A stretch of DNA of 64,000 nt from Escherichia coli (GTDB lineage: Bacteria; Pseudomonadota; Gammaproteobacteria; Enterobacterales; Enterobacteriaceae): NCBI RefSeq assembly GCF_024700885.2, contig NZ_CP117016.1; one strand, 5' to 3'. Shown piece by piece: positions 17,931-21,578 of the stretch. Below the pieces are notes generated by a model that was not told where the DNA came from, ran no database searches, and worked only from the letters and a program-made list of their open reading frames with translations. Numbering within the stretch: the first letter of the stretch is position 1; the number at the start of each line of letters is the position of its first letter. Position numbers and translations under genes: made by a program.

Positions 17931-20900
17931 ATGAGCGGAAAACCAGCGGCGCGTCAGGGAGATATGACTCAGTATGGCGGTCCCATTGTCCAGGGTTCGG
18001 CAGGTGTAAGAATTGGCGCGCCCACCGGCGTGACGGACGGTGCCGGGCGGGAGTTCCGTCTGGTGCTGACCACGCAGGCGCAGCGGGCGGAAGAGGCCCG
18101 TAAACAGCACACCGCTTCCTTATTTTCCCCTGACACCCCCCGCCCTCTTTCAGCCTCAGCGTTCCCCGACACACTGCCCGGTACCGAATACGGCCCCGAC
18201 AGGGGCATCCGTCTTTCGGCGGTGTGGCTGATGCACGACCCGGCATACCCGGAGAGCCTGCCCGGTGCGCCACTGGTGCGGTACACGTATACGGAAGCCG
18301 GTGAACTGCTGGCGGTATATGACCGCAGCAATACGCAGGTGCGCGCTTTCACGTATGACGCGCAGCACCCGGGCCGGATGGTGGCGCACCGTTACGCGGG
18401 AAGGCCGGAGATGCGCTACCGCTACGACGATGCGGGGCGGGTGGTGGAGCAGCTGAACCCGGCAGGCCTGAGTTACCGCTACCAGTATGAGCAGGACCGC
18501 ATCACCGTCACGGACAGCCTGAACCGGCGTGAGGTGCTGCATACAGAAGGCGGGGCCGGGCTGAAGCGGGTGGTGAAAAAAGAACTGGCGGACGGCAGCG
18601 TCACGCGCAGCGGGTATGACCCGGTGGGGCGGCTTACGGCGCAGACGGACGCGGCGGGACGGCGGACAGAGTACGGTCTGAATGTGGTGTCAGGCGACAT
18701 CACGGACATCACCACGCCGGACGGGCGGGAGACGAAATTTTACTATAACGACGGGAACCTGGTGACGGCGGTGGTGTACCCGGACGGGCTGGAGAGCCGC
18801 CGGGCGTATGATGAGCGGGACAGGCTGGTATCGGAGACATCGCGCAGTGGGGACGTCATCCGGTATGCTTATGATAATCCGCACAGTGAATTACCGGCCA
18901 CGACAACAGATGCGACGGGCAGCACCCGGCAGATGACCTGGAGCCGCTACGGTCAGTTGCTGGCGTTCACCGACTGCTCGGGCTACCAGACCCGCTATGA
19001 GTATGACCGCTTCGGCCAGATGACGGCGGTCCACCGCGAGGAAGGCATCAGCCTTTACCGCCACTATGACAACCGTGGCCGGTTAACCTCGGTGAAAGAC
19101 GCACAGGGCCGTGAAACGCAGTATGAGTACAACGCCGCAGGCGACCTGACTGCCGTTATCACCCCGGGCGGCAACCGGAGCGAGACACAGTACGATGCGT
19201 GGGGAAAAGCGGTCAGCACCACGCAGGGCGGGCTGACGCGCAGTATGGAGTATGACGCGGCAGGACGTGTCGCCACGCTGACCAACGAGAACGGCAGTGA
19301 CAGCGCCTTCCGTTACGACGCACTGGACCGGCTGGTACAGCAGGGCGGCTTTGACGGGCGGACGCAACGTTATCATTATGACCTGACCGGAAAACTCACG
19401 CAGAGTGAAGATGAGGGGCTTGTCACCCTCTGGCACTACGACGAATCGGACCGCCTCACTCACCGCACGGTGAACGGCGAACCGGCAGAGCAGTGGCAGT
19501 ATGATGGCCACGGCTGGCTGAGAGAAATCAGCCACCTGAGCGAAGGCCACCGTGTGGCGGTCCACTACGGCTATGACGATAAAGGCCGTCTGACCAGTGA
19601 GCGCCAGACGGTGAAGAACCCGGAGACGGGGGAACTGCTGTGGCAGCATGAGACGAAACAGGCATACAACGAACAGGGGCTGGCAAACCGCGTCACGCCG
19701 GACAGCCTGCCGCCGGTGGAGTGGCTGACCTATGGCAGCGGTTACCTGGCGGGCATGAAGCTGGGCGGGACGCCGCGGGTCGAGTATACGCGGGACAGGC
19801 TGCACCGGGAGACGGTGCGCAGCTTCGGCAGCATGGCAGGCAGTAATTCCGCATATGAACTGACCAGCACATACACCCCCGCAGGTCAGTTACAGAGTCA
19901 GCACCTGAACAGCCTGGTGTATGACCGTGACTACGGGTGGAATGACAACGGCGACCTGGTGCGCATCAGCGGCCCGCGACAGACGCGGGAATACGGCTAC
20001 AGCGCCACGGGCAGGCTGGAGAGCGTGCGCACCCTCGCACCGGACCTGGACATCCGCATCCCGTATGCCACGGACCCGGCGGGCAACCGGCTGCCGGACC
20101 CGGAGCTGCACCCGGACAGTACACTCACAGTGTGGCCGGATAACCGCATCGCGGAGGATGCGCACTATGTCTACCGCCACGATGAATACGGCAGGCTGAC
20201 GGAGAAGACGGACCGCATCCCGGCGGGTGTGATACGGACGGACGACGAGCGGACCCACCACTACGACAGCCAGCACCGCCTGGTGTTCTACACGCGGATA
20301 CAGCATGGCGAGCCGCAGGTGGAGAGCCGCTACCTCTACGACCCGCTGGGCCGCCGGACGGGTAAACGGGTGTGGCGGCGGGTACGTGACCTGACGGGGT
20401 GGATGTCGCTGTCGCGTAAACCGGAGGTAACGTGGTACGGCTGGGACGGTGACAGGCTGACGACGATACAGACACAACAGAGCCGGATCCAGACGGTATA
20501 CGAGCCGGGAAGCTTCACACCACTCATCCGCATCGAAACAGACAACGGCGAGCGGGAGAAAACGCAGCGGCGGAGCCTGGCGGAGAAGTTGCAGCAGGAA
20601 GGAAGCGAGGACGGCCACGGTGTGGTGTTCCCGGCAGAACTTGTGAGGATGCTGGACAGGCTGGAGGGGGAAATCCGGGCAGACCGCGTGAGCAGTGAAA
20701 GCCGCCAGTGGCTGGCACAGTGCGGGCTGACGGTGGAGCGGCTGGCGGCACAGATAGAGCCGGTTTATTTACCTGAGCGAAAAATTCATCTTTATCACTG
20801 TGACCACCGGGGGCTGCCGCTGGCGCTCATCAGTACCGAAGGAGCAACGGAATGGCGTGGGGAATATGATGAATGGGGCAACCTGCTGAATGAGGAGAAC

Positions 20901-21578
20901 CCGCATCACCTGCACCAGCCATACCGTCTGCCGGGGCAGCAGCATGATGAGGAATCAGGACTGTACTATAACCGGAACCGGTACTATGACCCGCTACAGG
21001 GGAGGTATATCACCCAGGATCCAATCGGGCTAAGAGGTGAATGGAATCTGTATAAATATCCATTAAACCCTGTTCGGTTTATAGATTCTTTGGGTTTAAA
21101 ATTCCATGTTAACGGTGATCCAAGTGATTTTAATCAGGCTGTTGAGTATTTAAAACAAGATTCACGAATGAAAGAAGCTATAGATTTTTTATCAAGCTCT
21201 GAAGAAACCATAAAGATAGAGTATATTGATGAAACCGACGTTAGATTTGACCCGGATAAAATGACTATATATTGGAATGGTAAGGCGGCTTTATTTTGTT
21301 CAACTGATTTAAAATCGAAATCACAATCACCTGCATTAGGTTTGGGGCATGAGTTTGCTCATGCGCACTTATATCTTATTGATAAGGATGGTTATATGGG
21401 GCTTGTGAGACGTGCGGATGAACAATATAAAAATAAAGAAGAGGCGAGAGTTATCACTTTAATTGAACAGCATGCGGCGAAAACTTTAGGTGAGTGTACC
21501 AGAACAGCATATAATGGAGTGTATTATCGTGTGAATACACCAACGCAGACGGCAACAATAAATGGCACGCCAGAATAG
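17931..21578 (+). CDS. rhs: Rhs-family T6SS effector (YD-repeat shell) with C-terminal toxin domain carrying an HExxH motif
   Basis: 1215 aa; N-terminal [17 protein letters not shown] (PAAR-like), many YD repeats, core end DPIGL...DSLGL, then a low-GC tail (~21099-21575) containing [10 protein letters not shown]. About 203 codons shorter than the N-terminal region of the neighbouring Rhs copy. Confidence 0.9.

Follow-up and report, generated by a model that had tools for sequence, protein, structure and literature searches.

Probable recurrent gene conversion in a core block shared by two decayed tandem rhs genes in a type VI secretion cluster of Escherichia coli

The 64-kb stretch of Escherichia coli chromosome analysed here in its entirety (contig NZ_CP117016.1; hereafter the window) carries two rhs genes in tandem on the plus strand, Rhs1 (17931-21578) and Rhs2 (22117-26347), as part of a type VI secretion system (T6SS) cluster. 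The cores of the two genes are divergent paralogues, with about 82% identity over 3 kb, except for a single block of 767 bp in which they are 99.5% identical. This block is best explained by gene conversion, i.e. recurrent homologous recombination of a non-reciprocal kind, between copies of rhs, an explanation to which we assign a probability of roughly 0.85. The 8.9-kb segment that holds the array (17900-26800) matches the chromosome of E. coli strain 1190 at 100% and is found at an identity of at least 99% in 31 RefSeq complete genomes or records.

The homologous parts of the two cores, as delimited by blastn and sliding identity, extend from 18023 to 21061 in Rhs1 and from 22818 to 25863 in Rhs2, both on the plus strand. 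They are in direct orientation and align by blastn with 82.3% identity over 3061 columns (E=0), and self-comparison shows this pair to be the sole long internal repeat of the window. The homology ends near 21061/25863, at the junction of core and toxin. Within it, the near-identical block occupies 19542-20308 in Rhs1 and 24344-25110 in Rhs2 (plus strand, offset 4802), with mismatches at only four positions (19730, 19754, 19777 and 19808), followed by a perfect run of 500 bp from 19809 to 20308. At the same offset, identity is 69.1% in the 5' flank (18880-19545) and 86.5% in the 3' flank (20321-21061). The 5' edge is sharp, as identity changes from 69% to 99.5% at 19541/19542, and the corresponding edge in Rhs2, at 24343/24344, is a recombination junction.

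An earlier note on this DNA, made by eye from the sequence, had described two near-identical core segments repeated in direct orientation in the tandem rhs genes, and both self-comparison and pairwise alignment agree with it. The spacing of about 4.8 kb given there is measured as 4801-4802 from start to start, the proposed block starts (~19546 and ~24346) lie within 4 bp of the actual ones (19542 and 24344), and a 73-mer quoted as common to both copies has exactly two occurrences (19547 and 24349). The near-identity was, however, overestimated at about 1 kb: the repeat is real, but its length is about 0.77 kb, and identity falls to 96.6% over 19546-20545 and to 93.5% over 19546-21000. Weaker homology (55-83%) reaches beyond the range of the note, 1.5 kb further upstream, to 18023. 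The same note attributed many duplicated antisense open reading frames (ORFs) to the repeat. Its example, 19921-20199 with 24723-25001, is a genuine duplicate, but both members are on the plus strand, out of frame within rhs; true antisense pairs are 19890-20618 with 24692-25882, and 20125-20475 with 24927-25286.

At the divergence of the 3' flank, a 767-bp segment would have no more than four mismatches with a probability of about 4e-42; chance is therefore excluded as the cause of the block identity. Synonymous divergence (dS) drops from 1.57 in the upstream flank to 0.017 in the block, and is 0.45 in the downstream flank; this collapse of synonymous divergence argues for recent recombination and not for selection at the protein level. 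At an identity of at least 99%, the block is present in 30 of 3,830 matching records, and the next match listed is an rhsD-type copy with 96.4%. The idea that the entire block is a universally conserved core segment was rejected on the basis of this rarity, the dS values and the array-specific alleles described below. Chi sites (GCTGGTGG) were sought as a hotspot explanation, and none was found within 17931-26746, the nearest being at 16841 in vgrG. The window as a whole contains 12 Chi sites, compared to 2.4 expected from shuffles.

For comparison, the tandem array of the window (W1/W2) was aligned with those of strain PCN033 at the same locus (P1/P2), strain 19KM1831 at the yncH-ydcC locus (Y1/Y2) and strain N3 (N1/N2), together with three single genes, i.e. 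those of 19KM1831 at the T6SS locus (K), WCHEC4533 (X) and strain 162.2 (S). Within arrays, the two copies of the block differ at four positions in the window, six in PCN033 (as a single 6-nt indel), none in 19KM1831 and one in N3; between the four tandem arrays, 10-26 positions of the 767-bp block differ. At ten consecutive informative sites (19556-19673) the two window copies share one set of alleles and the two PCN033 copies share another. Such block alleles, shared within an array and specific to it, amount to concerted evolution by gene conversion.

Three close relatives (F344, PCN033 and 23CRST032) are otherwise almost the same as the window but depart from it in just this region, and individual conversion tracts can be delimited. 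Strain F344 is identical to the window over 17865-26100 save for Rhs2 24283-24343, which has been converted to F344's own Rhs1 sequence, by which the block is extended upstream (tract start between 24269 and 24283) and an in-frame TAG stop codon of Rhs2 is erased. In the Rhs2 of PCN033, the converted stretch runs from 24304 to at least 24475 and has the alleles of the Rhs1 of that strain; here too the TAG is gone, and the tract starts between 24284 and 24304, compared to a block start at 24344 in the window. The segment 24304-24343 of the window is of native Rhs2 type, being exactly the same in the second 19KM1831 copy (Y2) and showing single-base differences in the second N3 copy (N2) and in the single genes of 162.2 and WCHEC4533. 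In strain 23CRST032 the change relative to the window is confined to Rhs1 (19063-19777). Tract end points therefore differ among close relatives, i.e. the window, F344 and PCN033.

The exchange involves a third paralogue, rhsD. Strain 1190 has an intact rhsD (NZ_CP023386.1, 3521482-3525693), which lies 353 kb from the array in the same orientation, and which carries the alternative, PCN033-type Rhs1 alleles at 19063-19455 and Rhs2-type alleles at 20315-20649. In F344, where rhsD occupies its classical ybbP-rhsD site, the gene agrees with Rhs1 at 100% over 2,734 bp. The rhs cores are thus mosaics of segments that have passed between at least three paralogues, Rhs1, Rhs2 and rhsD. rhsD could also serve as a partner in large rearrangements, or as a template from which Rhs1 is repaired.

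Toxin modules have also moved. The module consisting of the toxin tip of Rhs2 (CT2) and the adjacent gene I2 belongs to a single intact Rhs at the T6SS locus in 19KM1831 and is found at the yncH-ydcC locus in WCHEC4533, and the 5' part of Rhs2 is fused to another toxin in 19KM1831 and N3. As CT2 and I2 are carried on different cores at two loci, and the Rhs2 5' part occurs with another toxin, module swapping is evident. The suggestion of the earlier note that the direct repeats are substrates for homologous recombination is thus supported by the array-specific block alleles, the conversion tracts and this shuffling of modules, as well as by a precedent in Salmonella (see below). A vgrG-Rhs1-I1-Rhs2 unit with a different Rhs2 toxin is also located at the yncH-ydcC (rhsE) locus in N3 and 19KM1831; as the unit occurs at both loci, either the array or a copy of it has passed from one of these vgrG-linked chromosomal sites to the other.

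The comparative data show recurrent conversion among Rhs1, Rhs2 and rhsD, with tract ends that are sharp and variable, and we take this to be what homogenises the 767-bp tract. Following the Salmonella precedent, the block may in addition allow 4.8 kb to be deleted or, reciprocally, duplicated, which would fuse the 5' core of Rhs1 to the toxin of Rhs2 and I2.

Several points weigh against this explanation or restrict it. On established knowledge and the Salmonella precedent the exchange would be RecA-dependent, and the high divergence of the flanks would confine the tracts and keep their edges sharp, presumably via rejection by mismatch repair. The direction and order of most exchanges are not resolvable from the few aligned loci, the network of 11-13 aligned cores being too reticulate to order or polarise all of them. 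Furthermore, the expected deletion product was not encountered. A fusion of Rhs1 to Rhs2 was built in silico by joining window positions 18023-20308 to 25111-26746, and a search of 5,426 complete E. coli genomes gave no match of at least 99% to this exact product, the best contiguous match being 98.3%; there is therefore no recent simple deletion derivative on record. Contiguous matches over at least 80% of the fusion occur in 532 records, and the ones inspected (those of 19KM1831 and WCHEC4533) are rhsD-type cores with CT2 and I2. At its T6SS locus, 19KM1831 has hcp, vgrG, one intact Rhs (K), I2, ISAs1 and yafV; K corresponds to Rhs1 up to about 20522, and its toxin and I2 are those of Rhs2 at 100%. 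K was nevertheless rejected as a direct deletion product of Rhs1 and Rhs2 in view of ten sites at 20570-20879 that are specific to K and X, and this gene, with the architecture expected of the fusion, may just as well have preceded the tandem. The comparative record documents conversion, and a fusion of Rhs1 to Rhs2 is not documented. Of the earlier statement that the repeats can swap or delete toxin-immunity modules, the swap is upheld by modules that reside on differing cores and loci, but the exact deletion product is missing from all 5,426 genomes. Lastly, in the middle of the block (350 bp, 19900-20250), 10 of 10 rhsD-type cores examined are 98-100% identical, and the identity therefore partly reflects homogeneity of the whole family, and not an event private to this pair.

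This central uniformity is what strong purifying selection on that part of the Rhs shell, without any recombination between the copies, would produce. Such selection is nonetheless very improbable as the cause of the block, as it does not fit with a dS that drops from 0.45-1.57 in the flanks to 0.017 in the block, nor with edges that are abrupt to the base and array-specific alleles common to both copies; moreover, a different Rhs subfamily, represented by strain 162.2, is only 71-92% identical in this region. Somewhat better placed, although still unlikely, is the view that the block is an unreplaced relic of a recent tandem duplication of the whole gene, the flanks of which were later replaced from rhsD-type and S-type paralogues, so that Rhs1 and Rhs2 need not have copied each other. 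In agreement with such replacement, the single Rhs of strain 162.2 matches the 5' part of Rhs2 at 90-100%, Rhs2 25117-25451 matches the rhsD of strain 1190, and Rhs1 19063-19455 alternates with the rhsD type. However, in F344 and PCN033 the edge of the block has moved upstream by copying of the neighbouring Rhs1, in each case with the alleles of that strain, and a single old duplication would be unable to yield four separate arrays that each have their own shared block alleles.

The block is near-identical within each of four arrays at two chromosomal loci (0-6 differences), and one may ask whether it exceeds a mere consequence of homology and is a selectively maintained recombination cassette for switching or repairing toxin modules on demand, comparable to silent-cassette antigenic variation, in which case the damaged downstream gene would act as both silent donor and acceptor. 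We consider this quite improbable. An assembly artefact, in the form of repeat collapse or copy-over, deserves mention because a perfect 500-bp repeat at a distance of 4.8 kb is a typical problem for short-read assemblers, but it is hardly credible here: 26 independent complete genomes, from varied hosts and countries, have exactly the same Rhs2 junction segment (100%), and the 31 records agree to at least 99% over the entire 8.9 kb of the array. Recurrent gene conversion is therefore retained as the preferred explanation of the block.

Both genes of the array are damaged. Rhs1 is an open ORF of 1215 residues, annotated in RefSeq as 'incomplete; missing N-terminus'. Relative to Rhs2 and to the intact PCN033 allele (4263 nt), it has a 609-bp in-frame deletion after codon 33, which takes out the DUF6531/PAAR region, corresponding to about positions 34-234 of NCBIfam RHS_core. 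One copy of a 10-bp direct repeat, CACCGGCGTG, survives at the deletion junction (18023-18032, plus strand, from comparison with PCN033), and two copies of CACCGGCGTG bound the deleted segment in the intact PCN033 allele (around 3292-3901 of the PCN033 locus), suggesting loss by slippage or microhomology between the copies. In a comparison with NCBIfam RHS_core NF041261 (1261 positions, cut-off 2000 bits), Rhs1 scores 2216 bits with a main stretch covering only 235-1261, and the intact relative in 19KM1831 (K) covers positions 1-1261 with 2728 bits. A functional PAAR-Rhs T6SS effector requires the PAAR/DUF6531 part, and in Rhs1 this N-terminal VgrG-loading region is deleted. At the end of the Rhs1 core (21069-21098), DSxGL replaces the canonical DPxGL, a variant also present in the intact PCN033 and 19KM1831 alleles.

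Rhs2 retains its own ATG (22117), the repeat of the ribosome-binding region and the DUF6531 N-terminus, and is thus a decayed full-length gene and not a 5'-truncated orphan lacking the delivery region. RefSeq annotates it as 'frameshifted; internal stop'. Alignment of the tandem loci identifies three stop codons and one frameshift, all four on the plus strand and all outside the near-identical block. The most upstream is a CAA to TAA change at 23560-23562, present in strain 1190, F344 and 23CRST032 and absent from PCN033 and from Y2 of 19KM1831. It is followed by a +1 frameshift in a run of seven C residues at 23678-23684 (six in strain N3), which is common to PCN033 and the yncH-ydcC-locus copy of 19KM1831. 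The TAT to TAG change at 24302-24304 is shared with Y2 of 19KM1831, and is the stop codon that has been erased in PCN033 and F344 through conversion from Rhs1. The last lesion, TGG to TGA at 26063-26065, is inside the toxin domain, and the downstream ORF annotated as a 'hypothetical protein' (26099-26347) is therefore only a detached C-terminal remnant of the toxin. The uninterrupted frame required of a functional PAAR-Rhs effector is accordingly broken in Rhs2, although DUF6531 has been kept. Given an Rhs1 without N-terminus and a TGA in the Rhs2 toxin, a deletion fusion in strain 1190 would yield no working toxin.

The assignment of both tandem genes to the Rhs family is concordant between Pfam (RHS_repeat/RHS), NCBIfam RHS_core and RefSeq annotation. 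Pfam RHS_repeat matches 13 stretches of YD/RHS repeats in Rhs1 (E=1.2e-72) and 4, 5 and 1 in the three Rhs2 fragments; TIGR01643 matches as well. The core domain TIGR03696 is also matched, and a PxxxxDPxGL-type ending precedes the variable tip in Rhs2 (25871-25900), with the variant form in Rhs1 described above. The G+C content is 57-68%, mostly 60-68%, in the rhs cores and mostly 34-40% in the toxin tips and immunity genes.

The gene order on the plus strand is hcp, vgrG, Rhs1, I1, Rhs2, I2 and an ISAs1 transposase gene, followed by yafV, ivy and fadE. The hcp gene (15028-15546; Pfam T6SS_HCP, RefSeq) and the T6SS spike gene vgrG (15756-17864; Pfam Phage_GPD and Gp5_trimer_C, RefSeq) adjoin the array upstream, vgrG directly. 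I1 (21591-22040), an AT-rich gene encoding 149 residues with no family match, is the presumed immunity gene for the Rhs1 toxin tip. I2 (26348-26746), encoding 132 residues, is the presumed immunity gene for CT2 on the basis of RefSeq annotation and its position beside CT2. The Rhs element is closed by the transposase gene (27027-28163; Pfam DDE_Tnp_1, RefSeq), which belongs to the ISAs1 family (H-repeat type). All of these are on the plus strand. The minus strand encodes the T6SS structural genes from tssA to tssB, and tssA-K, tssH and tagH are all without a pseudogene flag in the RefSeq annotation of strain 1190, which links the array to an apparently complete T6SS apparatus. The locus has the composition of a classical E. 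coli Rhs element (a GC-rich YD core, an AT-rich tip, a small ORF and ISAs1) placed in a T6SS cluster.

In strain 1190, hcp, vgrG and the T6SS structural genes (window 1-17864) are annotated as intact, and both rhs effectors encoded by the cluster carry a pseudogene flag. The vgrG of PCN033, F344 and 19KM1831 is flagged in RefSeq as frameshifted or stopped, and that of strain 1190 is unflagged.

The toxin tips could not be assigned to a known family: neither CT1, CT2, I1 nor I2 matches a Pfam or NCBIfam family at threshold, and a PDB sequence search found no relative of CT1 or CT2. CT1, the toxin tip of Rhs1 (21099-21578), carries an HExxH motif (HEFAH, at nt 21348), and at a loose Pfam threshold has only a sub-threshold match to Peptidase_M91 (E=0.032). 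For I2, NCBIfam gives only a match with E=0.009, far under the cut-off of that family. The protein accession of I1 also adjoins an intact Rhs1-type gene in 19KM1831, and I2 directly abuts the intact CT2-bearing Rhs of 19KM1831 (K) and WCHEC4533, in which that gene ends at the base preceding I2. With the N-terminus of Rhs1 lost and Rhs2 carrying stop codons and a frameshift, this is a decaying array of which the most likely retained function, judged from the sequence, is immunity (I1 and I2).

The name Rhs stands for 'rearrangement hot spot', the genes having been named for their recombination behaviour, and the repeats behind the original rhs duplications are hundreds of kb apart. The array resembles the classical rhsA-E genes, especially the rhsD subfamily, in its GC-rich YD core of about 3.7 kb, AT-rich extension and small ORF, in the ISAs1/H-repeat and the vgrG/hcp linkage, and in cores that are substrates for homologous recombination. 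Unlike these, it consists of two tandem genes in the main T6SS cluster near yafV, both of which are defective, with repeats only 4.8 kb apart. The finding is known biology, and provides one more locus that confirms textbook Rhs behaviour, with nothing categorically new; it is mainly a confirmation because Rhs genes are named for rearrangement of this kind. Its modest value is that of a clear case from nature, resolved to the base at the tract boundaries, in which three rhs paralogues of a single E. coli lineage continue to undergo conversion.

In Salmonella Typhimurium, recombination between the main and orphan rhs across 522 bp with 95% identity has been observed experimentally (Koskiniemi et al. 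2014, PMC3967940). The arrangement is similar in that an upstream rhs and a downstream toxin/immunity module share a core match in direct orientation, which here amounts to 767 bp at 99.5%, and in that recombination would place the downstream toxin behind the upstream core, with loss of the first immunity gene. In contrast to the Salmonella orphan, Rhs2 is a pseudogene derived from a full-length gene, with its own start and N-terminus and with a stop codon in the toxin; in contrast to the Salmonella main gene, Rhs1 has no PAAR region, and conversion alone is documented here, not fusion. The model in which rhs genes diversify by C-terminal displacement (Jackson et al. 2009, PMC2935791) likewise involves exchange of tips at the core/tip junction, displaced copies downstream of the first gene and a distinct G+C content of core and tip; tandem clade II and clade III rhs genes in S. 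Typhimurium are noted in the same paper. This model stresses replacement of the tip, whereas the present array shows internal homogenisation of the core in a bounded 767-bp tract, a pattern that recurs across several independent arrays. In E. coli, PAAR-Rhs T6SS effectors have been described, and so has a metallopeptidase-type Rhs toxin tip (Ma et al. 2017, in the summary given by PMC6730261). These effectors share with the present locus the vgrG-rhs-immunity layout and polymorphic C-terminal toxins, alongside the HExxH motif of the Rhs1 tip, and they differ from it in that here the delivery domain of Rhs1 is deleted, the frame of Rhs2 is broken and the tips have no Pfam family at threshold and no PDB relative. 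In its DNA, the array behaves as these known systems do.

For practical purposes, an apparently complete T6SS cluster can hold only decayed cluster-encoded Rhs effectors while both immunity genes are retained, and this combination affects the prediction of competitive phenotypes from annotation. Short-read assembly and variant calling can also go astray here, owing to the perfect 500-bp repeat and the further copy in rhsD.

Downstream of the array, a 60-nt direct repeat is present at 28117-28176 and 28251-28310, with 92% identity and a distance of 134 bp. Its first copy spans the end of the ISAs1 transposase gene, and the second is a solo copy beside yafV that may be what is left of one end of another ISAs1 insertion.

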